Of a stretch of 64,000 bases of DNA, positions 3,001 through 60,080 are shown piece by piece. The DNA lies in NCBI GenBank assembly GCA_034226945.1, contig CP120462.1, positions 62,001-126,000 of the forward strand. The letters run 5' to 3'. Positions within the stretch are counted from its first letter, which is position 1. The number at the start of each line of letters is the position of its first letter. The notes beneath the pieces were generated by a model. It was not told where the DNA came from. It worked only from the letters and a program-made list of their open reading frames with translations, and did not search any database. The position numbers were made by a program, and so were the translations under genes. The DNA comes from Picochlorum sp. SENEW3. Lineage: Eukaryota.

Positions 3001-3708
3001 ACATCCTGGCCCATCATTCAGCGCTGAGCATCCTTGTGATGATGATAGCAATCAATTATTATTAGTCTTCTTTGTAAAGACAAACATGCAGTTCATGTCA
3101 TGTCATCCTAAAGTACATTGGCTTTTTTTCATGAGGTTTTTGACCAATTCATGAATTGAGCATGGCCATATGGCTTGCAAGCTCTCTTCCTGATCAGCAT
3201 CCTCATATGAGGATGTCAGTAACAAGGGGTTTGATCGTACCATAAGTGGCACTTCAGCTGCATTAATTGATCAATGTAAAACAAAATATATTAATTGAAA
3301 GCATTGCGGTTGGATTACCAGTATATACAGGTGCGTGTTCGCCATTGAGCAACCATGCTGGGACACAATAGGTTCCGTTCAGGCGTCGTCTAGTCAGGAA
3401 TGCGCCTCATCGGATTATTTAATATATATTATTATTATGATAACCCTATCCTGCATCCAAATGGCACCAAGTCTTGGTGAACGTGCGGAGTGGTGCACGC
3501 TTTTTTGTCCAAACATTTCATTTCATTCTTCTTCTTTTTATTCTTTGGTTGCTCGGCGAGTCTCGTCGCAAGGCTGTGAGCTTTGTTTACTTCTCACATC
3601 TACTAGTCACTTGCGTTGACATGATGGAAATATCCGGTTGCAGGGAGTCACCTTTGTGGATTTAGCAAGTACACTTGTCTTCTCTCAGGCCCAAACACAG
3701 ATTGATTC

Positions 3709-15609: not shown

Positions 15610-16626
15610 TCGTCAAAAATCTATTTACATATATATCAGACTGCAGTGTATAGGGAACGCCATGCAGTCATGCAGATGTCTGAGGCCATGCCCCACAAGT
15701 AGATCAAGGGTCATATGACCCTTGTCATGCAAGGCTTGCAAGGGCCTCGCGCTCTTTGCCAGGGAAGGAATCTTTGGATGGGCAGATCTGCAGGCATCAG
15801 TATCATCGACCGATACGACGAGGTCTCAAGATGCCTTATCGACACCAGTGCCATGCACTCTCTGTAGCCATGCAGGGTCCGGTTAACAACCAGAATGCGT
15901 GGCATGATACTTCGATCAAAGGAGGCCCCTGATGGGATATGGAGTCCATCGGAACGTCTGTGTACGGAGAGGGCGTTTTTTCGTGCCAGAGGGCTAGTTT
16001 ACTGCAGAGAAGTTAGATTATTTGATCCCAAAATTATTGGAAAGTGTTTTGGAGCAGTACTGCGCTGTCTAACGGGCGTGGAGAGAGGATAGTCGAGGTG
16101 CGTGGTTCACACAATTTCCCTGTCCACAAGTAGAATGTGACATTTCAAACCTCTATGGCGTTGCCTAGAGTGGATGGAAGGGGCCGATACCGCTGCAATA
16201 TGTGTATAATAATTTATTGAATCGAATGGAATTGGAATATGAGGGATATGTCCCGAGAAGTTTGAAAGTCGGCCGACTGTCTGCTTTGCGTTGAAAACGG
16301 ACGGTGGAGGCGGGCGCTCGTGCTGGTTTGGAAGGGAGGGTTTCCCTGTTGTATGCCCACGGGCAGCTCTTGTATCATACATTACCGCTTTCTCGACTTT
16401 CTTTGCAGGGTTTTGATCTAATAAGGTACCGATACGCTTGATCTGATCATCGTGGTGGGAGCAATGTGGACCTTTTTGTAGTGTGTTTTGATAGTTTGAT
16501 AACCCTTGAGTGTTCGAGAGCCGTTCGGTGAGGAGGAGGAGGTGCAATCGCGTATCGTGCTGCTGCCACGGGGTCTGAGCTCTAGTTGTCTTCGTTTTGC
16601 CTTGGAGGTGTTTGCGGGCTCTGAAT

Positions 16627-34945: not shown

Positions 34946-37900
34946 CTACGAATGCTCTTTTTCTCGGAGCAATTTCTGATACACCTGCTTCAATTTTTCC
35001 CCGCTCATGGAGTTCTCTGTAAATCTGCTCACAAACTGCCAATAGGGTAGCTTTGCTGCGTCATCCTCACAAATCTCATCTATTCGCTCACCAATAGATT
35101 CCATGTATTTTCGTGTTTTGTTGACCACTGTAGATGCGCCCATTTGTGAGCCTTTGCGCTGAATCGTCCTGAGTTTTCGAACAAGAACCATTGTTGTGTC
35201 ACCCAACTCTTTTCCAAAACTCTCATCGGATCTCTCCTCCTTCACAGGCACTGGCTGGTCTTGTCTTTTACGTTTTTGAGGTCTTGTCGACTTTTCCAAG
35301 TGCCTTAAAATGCCATACACCCTCGTCTCCAAATGGGAAGCTTTTGGAAGGGCTGAAGGTGCAGCATCAGGGAAAACAGCTGGTGAAATTTTGTCAGCAA
35401 TACTCAAAGATGGATCATTGTATATTCTGCAGCATGACCTCCGTTATTAAATCAATACAAATTGGTTATCATGGATTTTTGACGTACCTGGCCCATTCTC
35501 CTACCCCGTAGCGGTATGCTCCAATGAGGAGATCAGAGTCATCTTCAATGGTCCATCCACAACCTCTCATCCAAGCGGTGACGGCAGGAACCTCGCCAGG
35601 GAGCAGTGTGAATTTAATACGCTTTTTGGTATCTTCATCAAGGCCTTGCTCATTGGCAATTGCACTGATCTTTTCATCGAGAACTCTCATCTGTCTTGCT
35701 AATGCCAAAATGTCCCTGGCCTTGACATCCACACCAAAGAAATCCAAATGGGCCTCAGGTGGCCTTGCACGAGGGCCTGAACCTACTGTTTTCTCAAATG
35801 CCAATGGTCCAAGTCTTGCGTGAAACGATTCCACAGCTTTCTCACATCCTCTGAGCAATCCATACCATAAAGCCTGTAATGGCGCTAGATCAAGCACGGT
35901 AAGTGCACCCCCGACATCATTTGCTAATTCTCTCAACTTGAACGCATGGGGATATTTTTTGAAACATTTAATGAACTGAAGAGCATCTTTCTTGCTCAGT
36001 GTGTGCGGAAAGTTCTGCGGCCTAGGTGCAGATTCATCAGCCACCAATCTGCCTTCAGAGTCAACTGCTTGTGGCCATCTGTCGATTCGCAATTCTGCAC
36101 CAGCAATAGGGGGGCCCGGCATGCCTTTGCTCGCGCTTTTCTTCTTTTTAGAAGACCCAAGTTTGATTTTAAGGCCCTCAGATGGCTTGTTTGAGGCCAT
36201 TTCCATGGTCTTGAGCCTTGCAGTCCTGATACCTGGGTCCTGGTGAACCTCTTCCTCCTGTTTGGGGCGCATGTTCTCTGGGATCAACCGATCCCAGAAT
36301 GCTGCATCATCTTCCTCGCTCTTAAATGTAGCAACTTTGAATGACGACAGTAGGTCTGAGGCAGCTCCCTGACCTGATCCCTCTGTAGCATGCTCAATTT
36401 CCTCTGCCCTTGCTAGAATGGCATCCAGGTCCTCATCAGTCATTGATGTGCCATCAGTCTGTTTGCCTGCATCCTCACTCTCCGTTTTGAACAAATCTTC
36501 GGCACCAAATTTCAATATAGCTGCTAGCTCATCCTTTTTGAACATCTTTGCCCCAGCTGCTGCAGCCCCAGAGTCAGAGCTGTTACCCAACACAGTACGC
36601 CCTGAGGTATCCATCTTTTGGATCACAAGATGATCCAAGACCATCTTACTTTTTGCTCGTTCTAAAATATCTTCTTCTACAGATCCACCTGTGACAAGTC
36701 TATAAATATTCACGGCATCCTTTTGACCGATTCTGTGAGCCCTTGCCATGGCCTGGAGGTCATTCTGTGGATTCCAGTCCGAATCAAAAAGAAGCACTGT
36801 ATCTGCTGTGGCAAGATTGATGCCTAGACCGCCAGCCCGCGTTGATAGCAAAAATGCAAAATCCTGAGAGTCGGGCGCATTGAATCGCTCCATTGCCTGA
36901 TGTCTTTTGTTTGATGGTGTTGAGCCATCCAGCCTCTGATGTCTGTAGCCCCGCCTGTTCATGTATTCGCTGATTATATCGAGAACTTTGACCATCTGAG
37001 AAAATATTAGGACTCTGTGTCCTGTCTCTTTCAGTCTGCCGAGAAGTTTGTCGAGCAGCACCATTTTCCCAGAGGTCACCACCAAGTTTGTGATGATATC
37101 TTCAGCATTCCCTGTGGTTGCCTGATATGTTTCACGTGCCGTGTCGAATAAAAACGGATGATTGCAGCATTTTTTTAGGTCAACAATAATATTGAGTAGT
37201 TTTATCTGTGACCCCTTGGCGTTCTGCAGCAAGGAAATCTTCGATGAAAGCATGACATCCAAGCATTTCCAAACAAGCAAACAAACATACCTTGTTCAAC
37301 TGAGCAAAATTCCGCGTCAGTATCCATTTATAGTACTGCTTCTGCAAAGGCGTCATTGGTACGCGCAGAATTCTCTCTCTCTTCGGAGGAAGACTTTTTT
37401 CTACGTCCTTGATGACTCGACGCAACAAGTGTGGCCTGAGAACCCCATGAAGCTTCTCCACACTGTTTGGATCCTTCAAATCATATGTCTGCTCGAACGT
37501 ATCACAAGAAGGAAACTTTCCGGGATGTAGGAAGTTCAACAAAGCCCAAAGCTCCCTGATATTATTCTGCAGCGGAGTACCAGTCACCAGCAACTTTGAC
37601 TTGAATGTCCACTGACTCAACTCTCTGTACAATGCTGATTCGCTATTCTTCAACCGATGCGCTTCATCAACAATCAATGCGCTCCATCTAATATTCTTCA
37701 GCGTCTCTGAATCTTTCAAAACCATCTCAAACGTTGTGATCAAGGCATCAAACTTAACATGCCGCCCTGGAACAGATGCTTTTGTTGGAAACTCGAAATG
37801 TCGAATCACCTCTCGGGAAGACCCGTTTCCAACATACACGAGCGTGTTCACTCCTGGAATCCATTTTGAGAATTCTTTTGACCAGTTTGGAACTGTAGAA

Positions 37901-39057
37901 AGAGGTACGACCACCAATACTGGCGGTCCAATCATCTGAACCTCTGACACATACCCCACAAAACTAGCACACTGAATTGTCTTACCCAATCCCATTTCAT
38001 CGGCCAAGATCCCATTGACACCTCTCGACCAATTATACACCATCCAATTCAATCCGCTCAATTGATAATCCCTCAACGTACCACACTTAAGGTATCCCGG
38101 CTGCTCTGTAAGGGCTCGGTGTCCACTCGATAAGAATGTCTTGCGTGCCATATCCACACTCTGCCGAGGCTGCAGCGCCTTTAGCTCTCTCTTTCTATAT
38201 TCGTCAATTTTATCCTGAGCTCCCGCATCAATCAAGTCCTTTGCAGATTCCCACGTCGCGTCCGCATACGGAAGACCACTCCATTTCACGAGGTACTGCT
38301 CAACATTTTCCTCACCTCCCTCTGTTGTGTGATATCCATGTTCAGCACGTTGAGATGCTGCATGCAAACGCTCCCCAAATACCCTTTCAACCTGCTTATA
38401 CTGTTGCACAATCTCTTCCTCCATAGATTGACGCCAATCAACCTCCTCCAACTCTTCAACAGTCATGTGTGTCCTCTTTGCTGCCAATGCATCAACCCTT
38501 TTGCAATAATTCAAAACCCTTTTGAACCCTCCAAGCATAGACAGCGTCTGGTACGTATCCCATGAATTATGAATATGCGAGCACCTTGCCCATTTAACAT
38601 AAAACTGCCAAAACTTCCAAGCTTCTGGTCCTGTCAGAGGTATTTTGTTGTACTCCCCCTCAAACGCATGAGCGTTTGGTGCCTCCCTGTGAGTGATCAC
38701 CATCTCCACCTCATCATCCATTGCAGCCAAGTCTTCCTCACTCAGTAACACAGGGGCAATCAATTTCCTCCTCTTTGCCAGCTCTGCCTGTCGCAATGCC
38801 TCCTCTTCATCATCTGTATTCATTTCGTATATTTGCTCCTGCTCCTCCTCTGGGGCAGACGAGGACACCTGTCCAGCGCTGTTGAGCACTTTAAGCTTGA
38901 GCTTTGTCCTCACTCCATTCTGCTGATCGTTCACATCGCCATCATCATCGTACGCATATCTACCCACAGGGCCACCGACACCGCTCTGTTGACCAGGGCC
39001 CTGTTCGTGCTCCCATCTCTCCTCTGACTCACCTTTCGACCCCATCATCATCTCCAT
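34946..39057 (-). CDS. CHD1: CHD1-type chromodomain SNF2 chromatin remodeller (3 exons)
   Basis: Tandem chromodomains (FYVKW..SHIHNSW; YLVKWSGLPY..ATWE), ILADEMGLGKT, DEAH, DSDWNPQNDLQAMARAHRIGQ, SLIDE-like WTIEDDSDLLIG. Introns near 37290-37224 and 35487-35428. Confidence 0.93.
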
Positions 39058-41373: not shown

Positions 41374-43295
41374 ATGGCTGATACGACGAGTGGTGGAATA
41401 CGGCGTAGTATTCTTCCCAAACAGAAGAAGACTTTGGGGAAGGAAGACACAAGGACAGAGTGTCGTGACGCTGCAAAGGAGGTGGATGTGACTGGGTTGG
41501 GAGAATACGTGGTGTATGATTATACAAAAAGATTCTTTCGACCTCTGAATTCTGTTCGCGGTGCTGTAGAGGCCGAAGAAGAGGATGAGGTGGAGCAGCA
41601 TGCATGGACGGATCCAGACAGCACAAGGAAGAGCAATGCGACTCATCGATTGCGACTCTCCGCAAAGGTTTGGACGCAAAAGAGTCTATGCTATGATTGT
41701 TGGACGAGCTGCGATCGGGTGACTACTGTGGATAGATGCGTAGGTGAAGGGGTGGATGGGGTTCGGGGATTAGGAGGGGGTTGCATGAAGGAGTTGGGGC
41801 GGGTTTTGTTTCTGAACAGTGATCCGGACGCTTTTCGCGATTTCTTGGTACGTTGTTTATACATATGTATACATATGTATGTCTAGAAATTCAAGTACAT
41901 TCTTCGATGTAGATGTGGAATGATCCCGTGGATGATTGCCAGCCCATGCATGGAACACTACTTCCGTTATGGGATGTATCATGCCGTGCTATGGATGGCG
42001 ATAAAGCATCATCGTCGTATGATCAAGGAATGCAGATCACAGCGATGTGCTTTGACCCGAATAATCATGATGTACTTGCTGTGGGGCTGGGTTCGCTGGA
42101 ATATGAGCACAGCAGTATTGGTGGACGGGTTTCTGTGTATGGGTTGCTCGACCTTCACCGGCCTCATTTTACGATTGAATTGCAATCTGGAGTAACAAGT
42201 CTCGCATTTGGACCTGATGGATGGCTTGCAGTGGGATGTCAGGATGGTGGTGTGGTGGTCATGTGTCCTCGTCGAGGAAGTACATCATCATCTTCATCAT
42301 CACATACAGGATTGATCGATCGAGAGTCATATACGGTGCTTCCGTGTCGACTAGACCAGCATCATGTGTTTCCTGTATGGCATGTTTCTATGTTTCTCAG
42401 TCAAGAAGAGGAGGACCATGCTGTAGTGATGATTCGTTCCGTATCACAGGATGGGGTTGAAGGGATCTGGTCATGCCAGATGAATGATGATGATGAATGT
42501 GTGCATCGTCTCCAATCCAGTATCATCGGAGTAGAGAATAGTACATCTGAGTACGATCCGGGCATTTTTCTCAAAGCATCGAACACAGACGTCTTCCAAG
42601 CAATCTCGTGTGCTGATAGGAGGGATGGCGTAGCAGTGTATGGCACTCTGAATGGACACACCATGTCCATGACAAGCACATCTCCCACCCATCACATGGC
42701 CCCAGTACAATCAGTATCTATCAATCCTTTCGACGCAACATACTGCCTGTCAGCGTCATTGGATTGGACAGTGTCTATACGCAATTCACAGACACTTGAG
42801 AGCAAGCTTGACATTGACATTGGCCAGCCAGTCACAGATGCTCAGTGGAGCCCTCAAGCCTCCACAATCCTAGGTGTCATCACCAGATCAGGAGATGCTC
42901 TTGTGTATGATGTATCAGTGAGTAAAGAAGTACCACTCTGTCATCAGCGAATCTCAGGCACAGATTCCCTGACCAAGATTCTTTTTCATAGGCGGGATCC
43001 CCTCCTGTTGATTGGTACAACTGGGTACGCCTTATATATATATATATATGTGTGTGATCATCGTGACATCCAATATTTGCATGAACCACATATACACACC
43101 CCTGTGTGCAGAGGACGCATTGTATGCATGAAGCTCTCCCCCAACCTACTATGCAGAAAGCAGGCAGACGATTCTGCTGATTTTGCCTTTCTTGATGACG
43201 ATGGAGAGGATTCCGTGAAGCCAGCACATCGACCCATCCTTCCAGTGGAAGAACAGATCGATATACTGCACGACACACTCAAACACCCCTATTGA
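41374..43295 (+). CDS. Divergent axonemal dynein intermediate chain IC1/IC78 (ODA9/DNAI1-like) WD40 protein, multi-exon
   Basis: Spliced ...DAFRDF-MWNDPVD...GTLLPLW, DVLAVGLGS, LSASLDWTV, DAQWSP..ST, KLSPNL all resemble DNAI1-family motifs. Confidence 0.7.
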
Positions 43296-51118: not shown

Positions 51119-51720
51119 CTAAGTAAAAAAAGGACTTGGAAGAAAACCTCAAAGCGAAGAGAAAGGAGATGTTCATTTCGCAAACATAGTTCAAATAAAT
51201 AAAACACCCTGATTCATAAACAAATCTGTGAATATTCAAAATTATCTAGTTTGTGATTCGCCAAAGTGGTTTTTTCCAGCTTTATATCTGTGTGAATGGT
51301 AGCGATTTTCAAAAATTCGGAGAATTTTGTATTATTACGGGTGGAAGACGGAGATCTGACACAGAAGGAGTGATACGGTCGACACATATATGTGATATAT
51401 ATCACTGTCAGATACGCCACGGCGATTGCCTCTCAACGACAGCATTGGCAGAGCATCGGAACCACGTCGTCGTCTCACGACGTCATCCAATGGGGGCGTC
51501 TTCCAGGCGTCGATTTTACGGAGATCTGACACTGACGCTCTTTCGATGCCGGCACCAGACACGGGTGTAGGACCGCTCAGACGACACTAGAGACGGGAAT
51601 ACATCAGTCACGCGTGTTTCAAAAAACCGCAGATGTTACGGAGAGTTTTGACATGGCTTTTGAATAACCAATGCAATGTGGCGCAGTGCGTTGCATTTCA
51701 TTTCTAAAGACTAGGTAATC

Positions 51721-52506
51721 ATGGCATCGAGGCGATTGCTGGCGTCACTGTGGGCAGTCAGGGGGTCGAATGCTGTGAGCCATGGTTCTTGTGTCAGCAG
51801 TCAGATACCTCGTCATATTCACGCCCAAGGTACAATTGTACGAGAGGACAGTGAGACGAGAGAGAGTGGATCATGGATGCCAGAGTGGATGCGTGCTAGG
51901 ATGCCAGGGGTTCTGGGAGGCAGTAGAGAAGAAATTCAGGAGATGCAGGACTTGACGCTGGACTCGTACGCGAGCCAATTAAAAATGGCACGGAGATTGG
52001 GTTCTATGTCTGGGTTTGCATTTGGATCTACGAGTGCGTCGGATCCTGCTGCTCAGGGGACACTGCTGTTGTATGAAAAGATTATTGAGCGTATGAACTC
52101 GGCAGAGCGTGAGGATGTCAATGCATTCTCGTTGAACAGAAAAGTAATAGTTGCGGAGCAGGTTGGATGCAGCGTGGAGCAAGTGGAAGATTGCATTGCT
52201 CGATTCAAGTGGACGCAGCATATGATGAGGACGCTTGCGGCGTACAGAAAAAAGGGAAACCCAATGCCCAAGACGATGGAGGAACTGGAGCAGGTGGTTG
52301 GCAAGTGGCAGAGCTTCAGGTCGATTGAGGCAGGTGTGGCTTCATCTGGAGTAGCTTCTTCTGGAAGTATTGTGATTGCGATGGATGCTGTGTCGCCAAA
52401 GGATGGAAAGCCCTGTGGGCTTGCAGGGATGACAGTAGGTCGATCGACGAAATGTCCTCGATTTCGAAAGTCTTACAAGGCGTGCTGTGGAAAATATACA
52501 CGATGA
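51721..52506 (+). CDS. Organelle-targeted protein with a stand-alone SRP54/Ffh M-domain-like region and a C-terminal SEC-C-like motif
   Basis: LTLDSYASQLKMARRLGSM and IIERMNSAERE...RKVIVAEQVGCSVEQV resemble the Ffh M domain; VGRSTKCP...KSYKACCGK resembles SEC-C. Confidence 0.65.
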   Translation: MASRRLLASLWAVRGSNAVSHGSCVSSQIPRHIHAQGTIVREDSETRESGSWMPEWMRARMPGVLGGSREEIQEMQDLTLDSYASQLKMARRLGSMSGFAFGSTSASDPAAQGTLLLYEKIIERMNSAEREDVNAFSLNRKVIVAEQVGCSVEQVEDCIARFKWTQHMMRTLAAYRKKGNPMPKTMEELEQVVGKWQSFRSIEAGVASSGVASSGSIVIAMDAVSPKDGKPCGLAGMTVGRSTKCPRFRKSYKACCGKYTR

Positions 52507-53487
52507 CATGTATCAAAATAGTATTCAATGACGAAGAGTTTCAATACGGATGAGATGGGGCCAGGGACCCCCCTCGTCATAGTCGCAATCAAGTACAAGA
52601 AAGAAACCCTTGACAGAAGAACAGAAGTATAGGATTCAGAAAACTGTTCTTCGCCTACTGCCCTAGGGTTACTGACAGAAGTGCCAAAGAGTTTGGTTTG
52701 TTTGCAACTCCAGAAACTCGAGACATTGCGGTTGCTGTCTATTACCGAGAGAATGCATATCTCAAAATGGCGATTGAAATCATTAAAGCAGCGGCGCAAG
52801 ATAGATATGCTGCTGCTGATGGTCAGGAATTTGCAAGAACATAAGTCAAAGTCAATCTTACTTTCATCTTCACCAATGAGGGACCATCACATGTCGTTTT
52901 ATTACCCTTATACTGTAGGCGTATTCATTACTGGAACGAAAATATCAGAAAAAGGGTATCAAAACAGGGTATAGTTTCTTCGACAGAAATGACCGCCTGT
53001 TGAATTAATATAAACGAGTCAGTGGCAAAAGGGCAACAGAACTTCGAGACTGGAAAGGCTACTTGACTGAGTGACACAAGGCTGGCCACATCTGCACAAA
53101 ATACTGTACAGAAGTCCCCAAAACAAAGCAAAGATCTCGTGAATGCCAAACAGATCCCTAAAGAGGCCCGTGGCACCTCTATTACCCCCAGTGGCCCCCC
53201 TGACAGCTTGGAGCAAGCTCTGCAGAATGCTTGTCAATTACTGGATGAGCAGATAGCTGCAGTACTGGATGATCATATGTATGTGAGCAGATTCGAAATC
53301 TAATAGTCATGCCTCCCGTTGACGCCGCTTTCATACGAAGAAGCCGTCGATCAACACGTTCATCCTGAAGACATGGCCGCTCGTACTGTTTCTGAATATA
53401 GAAAATCATATGCGCGAACAAAACAACCCCCAGATTGGATGTGGTGGACCTCGCCATCACGAGATCATGACATGGTGCTGCGCACGC

Positions 53488-55566
53488 TCAGCTGAGGGCC
53501 GCGAGGATGGCGATGCATGCAGCCACCCCAGAGGACATGCAGCGCAAATCAACCGCGGATGAGCTGGGACTGGGAGGGGATCCGTTGGCATACCCAGCAG
53601 CGGTATTCAAGCTCCCGTCCGGAAGGATCTCCAGGCCCTTGCTGCGCACCTCGTCCTGATACCTCTTGGCACACGCGACAAACGGATCAAATTTGATGCT
53701 GCCAAAGCCGGTCGCTGGATCCCACCCAGGGGCCGCAGGGAACCCATACAGACACTTGTTGCCGAACTGTTTGTCACCTTGATTGTTTCCCACAGAAATG
53801 TCGTGGAAGGCATCAGTGCAGTTTTCTCCCATCCAGTAGATCATGGGATTGGCATACCCAATGGTCTTGTATCCGTCTGCCAGAAGCTTCTGGTTGACGA
53901 GCGTAAATATCGCTGCAGCCATGGGTGCAGCTAGAGAAGTGCCTGCTTGCAGTGAGAGATCTCCATTTGCAGCAGACAAGATAGGGAAATACGCAGCATA
54001 CATTGCGATATCTGGGAACGCTCTTCCATTGGGATTGAATCCAGGAGTGTCTTTGGTGGGAAACCCATCAAAGGTACTGGCATTGTTCTCCGACAAGTAT
54101 CGCTCTGCAAACTTCTTCTGCCATACTGGCATTGAGTATAGGCTTGACGGGTATTCAGTGCCCGTAAAGCCTCCTCCAGATGTAATGCCACCGTCAGTCA
54201 AACTGCTTGCAACTACCTCAGTGCCTTCTGGGTACTCCTCCGTGGCCAGCATCTGGGTGCCACCCACGACGGTCACCCAGGGACTGTTGTTTGGCCATAC
54301 AGATTGCAAGACCTGTTGATTTGCGTACAAGGGGTTATCCTTGGGTAAGCATGTCTCCTTCTCAGTGAGATCAGCTAGTCCACTTGCACCAGAGTCTCCG
54401 CTGGACACCAAGATGGAGACGCCACTCAGGGTGAGATTCTTCAGGGCTTCTTCACGAAGTTTGGGTTCAACTGCATAATCAGAGTTCCAACTCAGCGACA
54501 CTACCTGAGCACGTTCCTCAGAAGTGGTGACATTCTTGATAAACTCAAGGAAGTACTCTGTAGAGAGTTGGCTGTATGCCACCTTTATGTCTTGTTTAAT
54601 CGAGGCAGGCAACTTATCAGTGGTACCTGCTTCCACTGCCTCAACCGTTTCCTCGATGGCCTCTGATGCATAGCCTTTTCCCTTCAAAAACTCCTCCAAA
54701 TAAGCAACAGCCACAGATATCGGCTGCTTCGTCGGTGTAAAGTGTGTGACTGCCTGAGGCGCAAAAGCCTGTTGAGTCTGGACGTCGAGCATGGTTTCAG
54801 TACATTCGCCATCCCCTTCAGGAAGGCAAATAGAAACGTTATTTTTGGGTGCCCAGTCAGTCAGTTGCAGGGGAATATTCGGAACAAGACCCTGCAATAT
54901 AAGATATTCTTCCACAGCTGTTGTGTTAACAGCAGAATCTGTTAGGCCAAAAGAGAGCGTGGATGCTTGTACCTGATCTTCAGTACCCTGAAGCCCAGGA
55001 TTAACTCCATAGTATTCCCTCAATGACGCCGCCGAGGCATTGAAATAGTTGTAGATGGATGGCCTCATGAAGACAGTTTCATTACCATCTGAGAACACAG
55101 TCAATATTTCTGTTGCCTCATACAAGGTGTTTGGCGGGGCAACTTTGCTGAGAGGCAGGCCGTACACATACACGTTATCCTCAACCTTGACCGACTTCAG
55201 TTCATCCAGCTGCTCTGCGTCAAATGTGACGGTTGTGTTGCCCGCAAGGGACGACACCATGATGACTTCCACCCTATCAACGCACAGGTCAGGATTCGCA
55301 GGATTCACGGTAACATTGTTACCACACACAAAAGATAGTGGTGGATTTGTACACCAAGCGCTAATCTCGGAAATACCTTCAGATTTGTTCAGGCCAAAGT
55401 ATTCAGGAATCGTTGTCTTCTGAAGTTTGACTGCAGGGCCCTTGCCTTGATTAAGCTTTCTTCTTCCATTCTGAGTGATGGAGTTCAGGCCAACGGGCGT
55501 ATCCAGCGCAAGAGCAGGGCTTGTCACGAGGAACACTGCAAGCGAGTAAAGTAGGAATCTCGCCAT
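53488..55566 (-). CDS. Sedolisin / tripeptidyl-peptidase I-like S53 peptidase, secreted, probably GPI-anchored
   Basis: Signal peptide, ETMLD (ExxxD), SSGDSG, SPWVTVVGGT, SGGGF, GRAFPDI, GTSLAAP, Ca-site GWDPATGFG, hydrophobic C-tail. Confidence 0.9.
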   Translation of the reverse strand: MARFLLYSLAVFLVTSPALALDTPVGLNSITQNGRRKLNQGKGPAVKLQKTTIPEYFGLNKSEGISEISAWCTNPPLSFVCGNNVTVNPANPDLCVDRVEVIMVSSLAGNTTVTFDAEQLDELKSVKVEDNVYVYGLPLSKVAPPNTLYEATEILTVFSDGNETVFMRPSIYNYFNASAASLREYYGVNPGLQGTEDQVQASTLSFGLTDSAVNTTAVEEYLILQGLVPNIPLQLTDWAPKNNVSICLPEGDGECTETMLDVQTQQAFAPQAVTHFTPTKQPISVAVAYLEEFLKGKGYASEAIEETVEAVEAGTTDKLPASIKQDIKVAYSQLSTEYFLEFIKNVTTSEERAQVVSLSWNSDYAVEPKLREEALKNLTLSGVSILVSSGDSGASGLADLTEKETCLPKDNPLYANQQVLQSVWPNNSPWVTVVGGTQMLATEEYPEGTEVVASSLTDGGITSGGGFTGTEYPSSLYSMPVWQKKFAERYLSENNASTFDGFPTKDTPGFNPNGRAFPDIAMYAAYFPILSAANGDLSLQAGTSLAAPMAAAIFTLVNQKLLADGYKTIGYANPMIYWMGENCTDAFHDISVGNNQGDKQFGNKCLYGFPAAPGWDPATGFGSIKFDPFVACAKRYQDEVRSKGLEILPDGSLNTAAGYANGSPPSPSSSAVDLRCMSSGVAACIAILAALS

Positions 55567-55702
55567 TCCGTCACGGTCTGATACGATGCGTGGGGCTTCT
55601 CTTTTCCTTTGATTTAAGATTTTGTAATTTATTGTTTCTATTAGGTTTTTAGTTTATTCTAATGTTAATGTTAATTTGTGTTACAATCGCCCGACTGCCT
55701 AC

Positions 55703-55795
55703 AATTAATTAAACATGCCCGCGATGCTGTCTTTGATATCAAATCGATTACCTGCAGGTAAAGGCAGCTGCCTTTCATCGATCCCGATCGGGATC
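55703..55795. repeat. Chain of overlapping perfect palindromes (array A)
   Basis: TTAATTAA; TTTGATATCAAA; AATCGATT; TTACCTGCAGGTAA; AAAGGCAGCTGCCTTT; GATCCCGATCGGGATC. Confidence 0.9.
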
Positions 55796-56356
55796 TGTGT
55801 TTCGATCTCAAATTTTGTACATAGATTTGAGGATTCGTTCGGGGGCGTCTCTGGACCGACCAGCCTCATGCGAGATGGGATGGTGCAGCCCATGTGTTTG
55901 AAGGTATTGGTTTGATGCGAATACTTCAAAACTTTGGACATACACAGATGGTTCCAAACATACGGTGTGTTTGCTTGTGGACTTGAACATGAGACAGGGC
56001 AGTTTGAGGACATATGTTGGTCGTTGCCGACGGAACAGGTGCTCTAAATGCCAGCTGGCAGATGTGTTGATCAACAGAGAGCTCTAGCCAGGTCTGTAGA
56101 AGTTCGAGTGTGCACCGAGATTGAAGGCAATGCCATGTCCATAGGCAGTTACAGCAAACTATATCATTATGATGGATCAAATATATGGTCTATGTGATTC
56201 AACGTCCCCGTTTATTTTCTTGAATCATCTTGTCTTCTATTTCCCACTGTATGGATATATGTCATTCCAACCTATACCTTCTTTTTGTTTGGGCAGATCC
56301 TCGTGATGCTCTCGATCCTTTTGTTTTAATTAACGCATCGCAATTAGTGTGGGTTG

Positions 56357-56586
56357 CAGCACCGGTGCTGGTACCAGCCTACATATGTACATGCATGTAG
56401 GTTTGTACAAACATCATGATCATGATGTTTCTGATCAGAAGATGCGATCTCCATCCTCGCGAGCTCGCGCTCCGGAGCGAGGATCGATCCTCGAGGAGCC
56501 ATATCGATATGGGATATATATCTACCATGTATATATGCATATGCATCCATGGCCATGGGCGCGCGCGGGGCACCTATGTATACATA
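56357..56586. repeat. Chain of overlapping perfect palindromes (array C, 17 palindromes of 10 bp or more)
   Basis: Read directly, e.g. CAGCACCGGTGCTG, AAACATCATGATCATGATGTTT, CGAGGATCGATCCTCG, CCATATCGATATGG, TATGTATACATA. Confidence 0.95.
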
Positions 56587-56623
56587 TCCACCTTCATATT
56601 TTTTGCCTCTGATCGGACGAGTC

Positions 56624-56963
56624 GGCATATTTGATGGCATTTTCGGGGCATATTGATGTTTCCTGTCAAGTACGCGTTTGATGAGATGAGGATCCTGGGG
56701 TAGATCAGTTAGATTGAAAGTTGATTACTCTCCCATCGAAACCTGATTGTGATGGGAGTCTTTGCCGCCCTGCTGCGCCTCGCTAAGCTTGCTGAAGCTC
56801 CAAAACTGGCTCTTGACTGGTTCACTCATGCATTCTGGGCAGAGTGCAGGCATATTTGTTGACCAACTGGCATATTTTCTGAAATCAGCATATCGAGGGG
56901 CATATTTGCCGGACCAAATATGCCTCGAAAGCTTGATCTGGCAGATTTTCAAAGGAATATGCC
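56624..56963. repeat. Cluster of GGCATATTT-like motifs in both orientations
   Basis: Copies start at about 56624, 56636, 56647, 56849, 56869, 56899 and 56940 (+) and at 56915 and 56956 (-). Confidence 0.7.
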
Positions 56964-57188
56964 AAAAATGGAAACCCTGCTCATAAGAGGCCTAGGCCTC
57001 GGACACGGGGGATCTTTCTGGCACGGCCACGATGTTGCGTGCTCCGCGTTGAGTCGAGCAGCGTGAGGAATTCAAATGACTTATTAACCCACGCTTGATC
57101 AAGAGGCGACCCGGTCAGGGGGCATTGATGTAAAATCATACATACATATTGTCTACAACTAGTACAGGTTGAATACTCGAGAACGAGT

Positions 57189-57707
57189 ATGGCGACGTCT
57201 GTAGTGGCGAGCCAATATCAATACGCGACAACAAGAGGGGACATGATGGCTACGACGAATGCTGGGCTGGCGGAGGGGCAACGGAGGCAAGGAGGCTTTA
57301 AAGGGGATCGAGACTATCATGTGGACGCACTCATTGAAGCCTGTGAGAAGCCTGTGGTAGATGAAGGGACGATGACTGGTGTGAAGGAACGGGACTTGGT
57401 GCCATTTTTTGATACAGGTGACCTGGTTGGCGGAATGGGCTCTGCTCTGGATACGCCCGTGGGAGGGAATCAAAAGAAGCTGCGGGGGTATGGAAATGTA
57501 AACAAGGGTGGGTACTATGCTTCTCAGCAACAAGACAATTGTCCAAGAGGGAAGAAGAAGGGAGGGGATGGAAACAAGGGAGGAGCAAGGCAGTATTCGC
57601 AGAAGCAAAAAAGTGCATCTTCTTCGCCAAAGGAAAAGTATGCTGGTCCAGCTTTTACACTGAGCCCAGTGCCAGAAAGTGTTCCAAAGCCAACGTTTAT
57701 TCTGTAG
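57189..57707 (+). CDS. PNRC/Edc1-like disordered protein (candidate mRNA decapping activator)
   Basis: Low-complexity G/K/Q body ending KYAGPAFTLSPVPESVPKPTF (YAGxxF plus PxPxxxPxP). Confidence 0.7.
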   Translation: MATSVVASQYQYATTRGDMMATTNAGLAEGQRRQGGFKGDRDYHVDALIEACEKPVVDEGTMTGVKERDLVPFFDTGDLVGGMGSALDTPVGGNQKKLRGYGNVNKGGYYASQQQDNCPRGKKKGGDGNKGGARQYSQKQKSASSSPKEKYAGPAFTLSPVPESVPKPTFIL

Positions 57708-57897
57708 TGCGCGAGAAGTTGTAGGACACGTAGGTAGTTTGTGTATTATTATGAAGTTTTGTTCAGCTACAGCAGTAGAGTCAGTGGGATATGGGAAGAA
57801 TAAAGTATTGAAATTTTTTGCTTTTTTCTTCTCTGGAAACACGTCAGAGAGTTGTATAAATGATCTTTCGTGGACTTGCATGCAAGTTTTCAGAGCA

Positions 57898-58424
57898 TTG
57901 ACGCTGTATCCCGCTGCTCAGGGGACACTGCTGTTGTATGAGAAGATTATTGAGCATATGAACTCGGAAGAGCGTGAGGATGTCAATCCATTCTTCGTGG
58001 ACAGAAAAGCAATCGTAGCGGAGCAGGTTGGATGCAGCGTGGAGCAAGTGGAAGATTGCATTGCTCGATTCAAGTGGACGCAGCACATGATGAGGACTCT
58101 GGCAGCGTACAGGAAGAGGGGGAACCCAATGCCCAAAACTATGGAGGAACTGGAGCAGGTCGTAGGGCGGTGGCAAAATTTCAGGTCCAGTGAGGCAGGT
58201 TTGGCTCCATCTACAGTTTCTTCGTCGGGAAGTATTGTGATTGCGATGGATGCTGTGTCGCCAAAGGATGGAAAGCCCTGTGGGCTTGCAGGGATGACAG
58301 TAGGTCGATCGACGAAATGTCCTCGATTTTGAAAGTCTCACAAGGCGTGCTGTGGAAAGTATACACGGTAGCATATGCAAGATCAAATTTCGGTTCAAGT
58401 CCCAACACAGATGAGATGGGGCCA
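57898..58424 (+). pseudogene. 5'-truncated duplicate of the 51721-52506 gene with a premature stop
   Basis: 57908-58367 aligns with 52043-52502; CGA>TGA at 58330-58332; the 3' flank GATGAGATGGGGCCA is shared (52549 vs 58410). Confidence 0.85.
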
Positions 58425-59509: not shown

Positions 59510-60080
59510 GCCGCATCTATTTTTTTCACTGGTATTTTAATTGATGATAATCATCGTGATGTGATATCCACAATACAATGCACAATCTTGTGATCACCAT
59601 CTTTACACGACGGGTTACGCTACGCTTTACACTACGGTGGTTCCGTACAAGCAAGCACTCTCGAGAACAAGGTGTAGCAAGAATCTAATCTCATTGACTC
59701 GGGCCAGTGTATTTTAAAAAAATACATTGTTGGTAAAACCAACAATAGATGCTCGCAATACTCGTCTTATGAGTGCCTGACCCACCTTCACCACAAAAGC
59801 AATACCATGGGACGCCTGTACGCGCTGATATCAGCATCGATGCTCATATATATCTCTTGTGCCATCCGTCACCATGACTGAGGATCAGGCGTAGGGGAGA
59901 TTCAGGAGAGATGCAGTTTGAACCATAGTATTCGAATGGGACCACCATAAAGGTGTTGCATGCATGTGGTTCAGATTTGTCATGATGATTATTGAACAGC
60001 AGTTGATGTGAAACATCTCTTTGAAAGTACAAGCAATTACAATATTCTGTACAAAGTATATGTTTATTGCGTGTCGTCAA

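Follow-up and report, generated by a model that had tools for sequence, protein, structure and literature searches.

A single excision scar of the hairpin type is textbook material. Passages of PMC5873905 describe the P-nucleotide palindromes that flank the break after Ac/Ds excision, with arms of up to 20 nt in budding yeast, and record microhomology in 85-100% of Arabidopsis footprints. For hAT elements, Transib, RAG1 and a MULE, hairpins are formed on the flanking DNA and opened by host enzymes, as set out in part of PMC5499845. CACTA elements typically produce a 3-bp target duplication, and a 5-bp remnant containing it has been reported (PMC11790086, in the part concerned). A chain of ten or more such scars, nested in one another, is apparently new: the open-access literature yielded no description of so many footprints nested within about 100-230 bp. 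On algae, Picochlorum included, open-access text likewise yielded nothing relevant about chains of palindromes or about footprints, the footprint papers dealing with single scars only; PMC12312487 contains no passage on footprints. The Picochlorum lineage is used in biotechnology and is considered repeat-poor. CACTA (En/Spm, CMC) elements are reportedly present in the green alga Volvox, and we know of no biochemical demonstration of hairpin formation by CACTA transposases.

The window (the whole 64-kb stretch of DNA that was analysed) is compact eukaryotic nuclear DNA of approximately 47% GC, with long ORFs for ordinary cellular proteins. Two of its genes, for an ATG4-type peptidase (C54; 49652-51118) and a CHD1-type remodeller (35469-39057), are each represented by two ORFs, which suggests short introns or frame changes in genes that are otherwise intron-poor. 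The chain lies in a 1.5-kb inter-ORF gap between diverging genes, whose start codons lie at distances of about 800 and 600 bp. The features of this region are as follows:

53488..55566, minus strand: subtilase gene, with the chain in its upstream region
55787..56328, no strand: left dispersed-repeat mosaic, with variant letters and a summed contig depth of about 10-28 times single-copy
56357..56586, no strand: main palindrome chain of 17 perfect even palindromes with arms of 5-11 nt
56624..56963, five on the plus and two on the minus strand: cluster of seven GGCATATT motifs in 340 bp of multi-copy sequence
56842..57146, no strand: right dispersed repeat, with its deepest bin at 57086-57146 and copies that diverge at 57144/57146
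57189..58332, plus strand: next gene on the opposite side of the chain, comprising two ORFs, with an SRP54 M-domain-like match in the second

The best named relatives of the subtilase were a Picochlorum renovo model (63% identity) and Picochlorum sp. BPE23 (41%), so that this one protein points to a Picochlorum-like alga, Picochlorum being a trebouxiophyte green alga. The gene beyond the chain and 51721-52563 are partial paralogs; positions 57908-58424 and 52043-52563, the 3' parts of two SRP54 M-domain-like genes, are 87% identical over approximately 520 bp. No further duplications besides this pair were found inside the window, nor any other copies of the chain's intergenic region. A search of 55000-58000 against Rfam gave no match, and the contigs of the one clear RNA run (X10) lay on the repeated flanks only.

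Depth of the chain contig equalled that of the neighbouring gene (16.2 vs 16.9 in X3), i.e. the main chain is single-copy. Over 55800-56330 and 56842-57146 the depth in X3 was about 10-35 times higher than over the chain, with variant letters, summed contig depth being a rough guide only to copy number. Break points of the left repeat were located at 55787, 56140/56144, 56209/56211 and 56328. Contig joints at 56177/56445, 56869/56952 and 56984/57113 rest on short sides of 22-27 letters in repeats and were set aside. Two smaller differences between runs or copies were recorded. The hexamer TAATGT, present 2.7 times at 55660-55675, is one unit shorter in X3, as in ordinary slippage polymorphism. 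The T at 56071, within a 12-bp palindrome at 56065-56076, is a C in the paralogous contigs of all four runs, so this palindrome was made or broken by one substitution.

Region 55600-57150 was present, at least partly, in 20 of 21 listed public runs (12 studies); four runs were aligned to it, and the environmental runs that carry the chain include animal gut metagenomes. The chain itself was recovered in the contigs of three studies with 0 differing letters and 0 gaps, which rules out a one-off assembly error. Contigs spanning it were as follows:

X1: records 4 and 6
X3: record 18 (56299-56724)
X8: record 27 (56299-56866)

The X1, X3 and X8 contigs are possibly all of one strain, and X1 is possibly the window's own source. 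Identity of the chain between runs may simply reflect one strain and carries no information on conservation.

A sequence-only reading of this DNA had described 17 loop-less palindromes with arms of at least 5 nt, far in excess of chance and not copies of a tandem repeat. All 17 were located at the same coordinates. Dinucleotide-preserving shuffles of the window (30 in number) gave a mean of 63.2 loop-less palindromes (range 50-74) against 113 in the window itself, and the maximum per 230 bp across shuffles was 4, against 17 in the chain. Tandem Repeats Finder gave nothing within the chain. The palindromes cover 184 of the 230 bases of 56357-56586. From one palindrome to the next (16 pairs), eight overlap, by 2-8 nt, and two abut; gaps of 1 nt separate three pairs and gaps of 10-17 nt the other three. 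The inter-ORF gap at 55654-57128 contains 25 of the window's palindromes; a (TA) microsatellite at 43033-43049 is the source of 8 of the 113 calls.

Inverted repeats with arms of at least 5 nt were counted by spacer length over 56340-56600. Seventeen had a spacer of 0 and none a spacer of 1, 3 or 5 nt; counts at spacers of 2, 4 and 6 are the same palindromes re-counted, and the scan found no looped inverted repeats in the chain. Because the chain is without odd-centred palindromes, any hairpins from which it was made would have been perfect, as at RAG/Transib-type breaks.

A smaller chain within the left repeat allowed comparison with paralogous copies:

55732..55795, no strand: mini-chain of four palindromes, three inserts of which are missing from paralogous copies
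55738-55745: mini-chain insert of 8 nt, triplet GAT
55755-55767: mini-chain insert of 13 nt, triplet CTG
55781-55787: mini-chain insert of 7 nt, triplet TCG

Other copies of the repeat are 37 nt shorter across 55737-55786. In a paralogous X3 contig, 55736 is joined to 55787 with 13 letters between, and the 21-letter loose ends before 55787 in X1 and X8 are the short form of the window sequence. The scar-free target form of the mini-chain therefore exists elsewhere, in paralogs that hold the short 55737-55786. Each insert is made wholly of inverted copies of the adjoining left or right bases, and where both flanks contribute the inverted copies overlap by 2-3 nt. The triplet in front of each insert recurs behind it. 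Since several diverged paralogs are short and the window copy alone is long, insertion is the parsimonious direction, and the mini-chain probably arose by insertion into intact older sequence. At 57111-57118 of the right repeat, an X3 paralog has 38 letters in place of 6. Several perfect palindromes lie within these 38 letters, together with a repeat of the neighbouring bases, so the process is presumably not confined to the chain locus.

A reversal rule was defined by two palindrome centres with identical inner triplets and with arms that together span the whole interval from one centre to the other; at each such place the interval and one triplet copy were deleted. Blind reversal of 55716-55810, with no input from the paralogs, removed three events and reduced 95 nt to 58 nt. 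The product holds the 21-letter loose end of X8 exactly, followed by the window sequence from 55787. Controls with complement or reverse triplets gave 0 events at the mini-chain. Reversal of the left half of the main chain gave the following:

56357..56440, no strand: left half of the chain, five nested footprint-like events, 84 nt reduced to 25 nt
56364-56372: insert, triplet ACC
56385-56393: insert, triplet CAT, nested in an older insert at 56384-56406 (ACA)
56417-56419: insert, triplet TCA, beside or before an older insert at 56423-56434 (TCA)

Four of these five events are two-sided, with both arms of at least 4 nt. The left half thus holds five events in about 25 ancestral bases, and the mini-chain three in 34.

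For a window-wide test, palindromes that adjoin or overlap were paired, giving 25 pairs in which each arm reaches at least 4 nt, low-complexity sequence being excluded. A direct 3-nt duplication was present in 6 of the 25 (51383, 55732, 55748, 56357, 56380 and 59824); in controls the reversed triplet matched once, the reverse complement three times and the complement not at all. Permutation of partners (10,000 times) gave a mean of 0.93, with six or more pairs at P = 1e-4. Two of the pairs are isolated:

51383..51405: two-sided footprint-like pair, insert 51389-51398, ATA duplicated, in a divergent intergenic region
59824..59844: two-sided footprint-like pair, insert 59830-59838, GAT duplicated

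Events with a 3-nt duplication numbered ten: six clean pairs, one one-sided event confirmed by paralogs, and three nested events. In all ten the insert is fully covered by two palindrome arms that overlap by 1-4 nt. In relatives, 27 metagenome loci around the orthologous gene (117 kb, mostly from algae of about 60% GC) showed a 3-nt duplication in 3 of 22 palindrome pairs.

The remainder of the main chain behaved differently under the rule:

56458..56586, no strand: right half of the chain, ten of the 17 palindromes, not decomposed by the 3-nt rule

Here the direct rule gave one small event, the complement control three and the reverse control none. Decomposition under duplication lengths of 3, 4 or 5 nt, or with as many as 2 untemplated bases allowed, was no better than controls and was rejected. 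Allowing 2-nt duplications made the right half collapse and produced two further two-sided 3-nt events, but this rule was too permissive to be kept. Three short right-half events, tandem copies of palindromic 6-mers, are fitted equally by the 3-nt rule or by plain duplication.

A duplication of 5 nt instead of 3 nt was seen in two cases, at 56499-56522 and 15705-15724. The second is a perfect palindrome of 20 bp lying about 100 bp before the start codon of 2-oxoglutarate dehydrogenase; the 5 nt that precede its centre are repeated after it, which may mark a scar with one side only and a duplication of 5 nt. An 18-bp perfect palindrome at 3198-3215, with TCAG on both sides, is laid out differently from the footprints, more in the manner of a very small fold-back insertion. 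Scars with one side only were sought in 701 candidate intervals, of which 31 matched at shift 0 and 12-31 at seven other shifts. Among 50 palindromes with arms of at least 6 nt, matches numbered 13 under the direct rule, against 7 with complement triplets and 5 with reversed ones. One-sided scars are indistinguishable from chance.

Transib/RAG insertion duplications are 5 bp long, and normal V(D)J P-nucleotide tracts are short; only the two 5-nt cases above match that duplication length. Likeness to CACTA elements lies in a sequence-independent 3-bp duplication, which was found at the chain events, and in the short-motif subterminal arrays of En/Spm. CACTA termini, a CMC transposase or an element of this kind were not found in the window. 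With Ac/Ds scars, as described in passages of PMC5873905, the locus shares inverted flank copies on both sides, a retained duplication, joining by microhomology and long arms. Ac/Ds duplications, however, are of 8 bp, with odd palindromes centred on a complemented base, whereas those of the chain are of 3 nt, with even palindromes. The hAT type of footprint, with its 8-bp duplication and one-base-centred palindromes, was accordingly absent (3 nt; 0 repeats at spacer 1, 17 at spacer 0). With V(D)J joining and Transib/RAG breaks, as set out in part of PMC5499845, the locus would share perfect even hairpins on the flanks and P-nucleotides from off-centre opening. Filler made by polymerase theta resembles the chain in its short inverted flank copies and microhomology; in such filler no duplication and a loop between the arms are expected, in contrast to the 3-nt duplication and spacer of 0 seen here.

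The resolved parts are read here, at a probability of roughly 0.55, as nested excision footprints of a hairpin-forming cut-and-paste transposon with a 3-bp target duplication, on the basis of one 64-kb window and short contigs. This reading follows from the combination of a retained triplet, inverted flank copies and microhomology, which is the footprint anatomy of the hairpin model. An inserting element would create a 3-bp target duplication. At excision each flank would be sealed as a perfect hairpin, and a nick 3-11 nt off the tip would leave a self-complementary P-nucleotide tail, i.e. an inverted copy of the flank. The two tails would then be joined via 1-4 nt of microhomology. Each cycle would convert L-t-R into L-t, inverted L-t, inverted t-R, t-R, giving two abutting palindromes centred on the two copies of triplet t. 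Further cycles in the same few dozen bases, some of them within earlier scars, would produce the overlapping chain. The sequence-only reading had offered two chemistries: hairpin capping and opening, with P-nucleotides, fits the resolved parts, and snap-back growth from one 3' end does not.

We infer from the scars that the breaks and hairpins were made by a transposase and that the site was an insertion hotspot. A hotspot must be assumed because five events in about 25 ancestral bases are packed much more densely than by ordinary reinsertion. It could be caused by a promoter region beside transposon-like repeats with an array of GGCATATT, which would perhaps recruit the transposase. Lying between diverging genes, the site is presumably of a nucleosome-poor type, and each scar would add symmetric DNA that is possibly itself a favoured target. 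En/Spm elements carry subterminal arrays of short motifs in both orientations. The motif GGCATATT was counted 13 times in the whole window against 2.07 expected, and its cluster is reminiscent of the binding sites arrayed subterminally in DNA transposons. It may be a candidate transposase-binding or promoter motif array. Subterminal repeats of such a kind are described for a MULE in part of PMC5499845.

The same scars could be left if the breaks came from a nuclease of the host, or another one unrelated to transposons, whose cuts have a short 5' stagger, mostly of 3 nt. The stagger would be filled in, and the ends would be hairpin-capped or extended by turn-around synthesis and then joined. 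Scar anatomy by itself needs no transposon, and none was seen in the window: the 42 ORFs scanned contained no transposase domains, neither an element nor its terminal inverted repeats nor an occupied site came to light, and a scan for inverted repeats with flanking duplications returned only chance arms of 9-10 nt. Duplication length also varies, there being the 5-nt cases and a right half that collapses only with 2-nt duplications, and the extreme clustering would suit a locus-recruited enzyme, for example one recruited via the GGCATATT array. Yet the ten duplicated triplets share no sequence that would point to a site-specific nuclease, the locus is set in transposon-like dispersed repeats, and to our knowledge no cellular nuclease has both a 3-nt stagger and perfect hairpin ends. 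Hairpin formation is known, by contrast, for transposases of the RAG/Transib/hAT/MULE type, as described in part of PMC5499845. A nuclease origin of the breaks is therefore judged possible and unlikely.

A further reading, quite unlikely and put forward tentatively, is that of a self-reinforcing break hotspot, in which a hairpin-forming or domesticated transposase is recruited by the GGCATATT array or by the palindromes and DNA grows by 'palindrome breeding'. If this were true, it would be a distinct route to new sequence, made of inverted copies of a 25-nt seed alone, and the chain would be a legible record of event order.

Growth of a single long filler at one break, by iterated base addition and snap-back copying as by polymerase theta, is very unlikely. 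The right half, a run of palindromes with 2-nt overlaps that lies outside the 3-nt rule, could be explained in this way, and the 1-4 nt junction overlaps fit microhomology-mediated joining. Chains were simulated on this model (300 chains; 0-6 new bases added, then 5-11 nt copied by fold-back). In none of the 300 did the number of two-sided events with a 3-nt duplication reach three, against four in the left half, and 1 of 300 lost at least 59 nt under the reversal rule. Geometrically, priming by a folded 3' end should leave loops, whereas spacers of 1, 3 and 5 nt are absent, and a single template switch would be expected to reverse the order of the inverted copies. The earlier proposal that a few new bases alternated with 5-8 nt of fold-back copying does not agree with the resolved parts, where the non-palindromic bases are old target sequence. 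Growth from one end is likewise disfavoured by the pairing of palindromes around a direct 3-nt duplication and by the mini-chain paralogs, which show three separate insertions in intact older sequence. The marks of snap-back filler were thus not found in the left half or the mini-chain.

Palindromes might instead be kept by selection as a divergent-promoter array, of sites for dimeric factors or of cruciform DNA, their origin being secondary. The chain does lie between diverging genes at the distances from the start codons given above and is identical in the contigs of three studies, and other intergenic regions are also enriched in palindromes (4.27 per kb outside long ORFs vs 1.00 per kb within, in the window). 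That identity may, however, reflect one strain, and because all 17 palindromes differ no single factor could bind all units. The 27 loci of relatives (117 kb) contained no chain and at most 5 palindromes per 250 bp, and the paralogs function without the mini-chain inserts. Maintenance by selection is considered most unlikely as the primary account. Although the tract contains many 6-bp restriction-type sites, the chance that assembly or amplification created it, or that it is a synthetic polylinker, is practically negligible, given the identical tract in the contigs of three studies, the absence of a match to the chain in a plasmid collection of 72,556 records that was not built as a vector library, arms of 5-11 nt that are longer than cloning sites require, and equivalent anatomy at four other sites in the window.

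The chemistry of excision footprints is known and half of the tract lies outside the rule, which lowers the interest of the locus relative to that given by the sequence-only reading; for the transposon and end-joining field the interest is moderate to high. If the footprint reading is right, repair of hairpin-capped breaks alone created approximately 60 of the left half's 84 bases, and the order of at least five events has been kept by nesting. The chain would then document, in nature, how hairpins are opened and ends joined in a green alga, with arms of 3-8 nt and microhomology of 1-4 nt. A transposase that makes perfect hairpins with a 3-bp stagger would be active, or recently active, in this lineage, and promoter DNA could quickly acquire many palindromic, potentially protein-binding sites.
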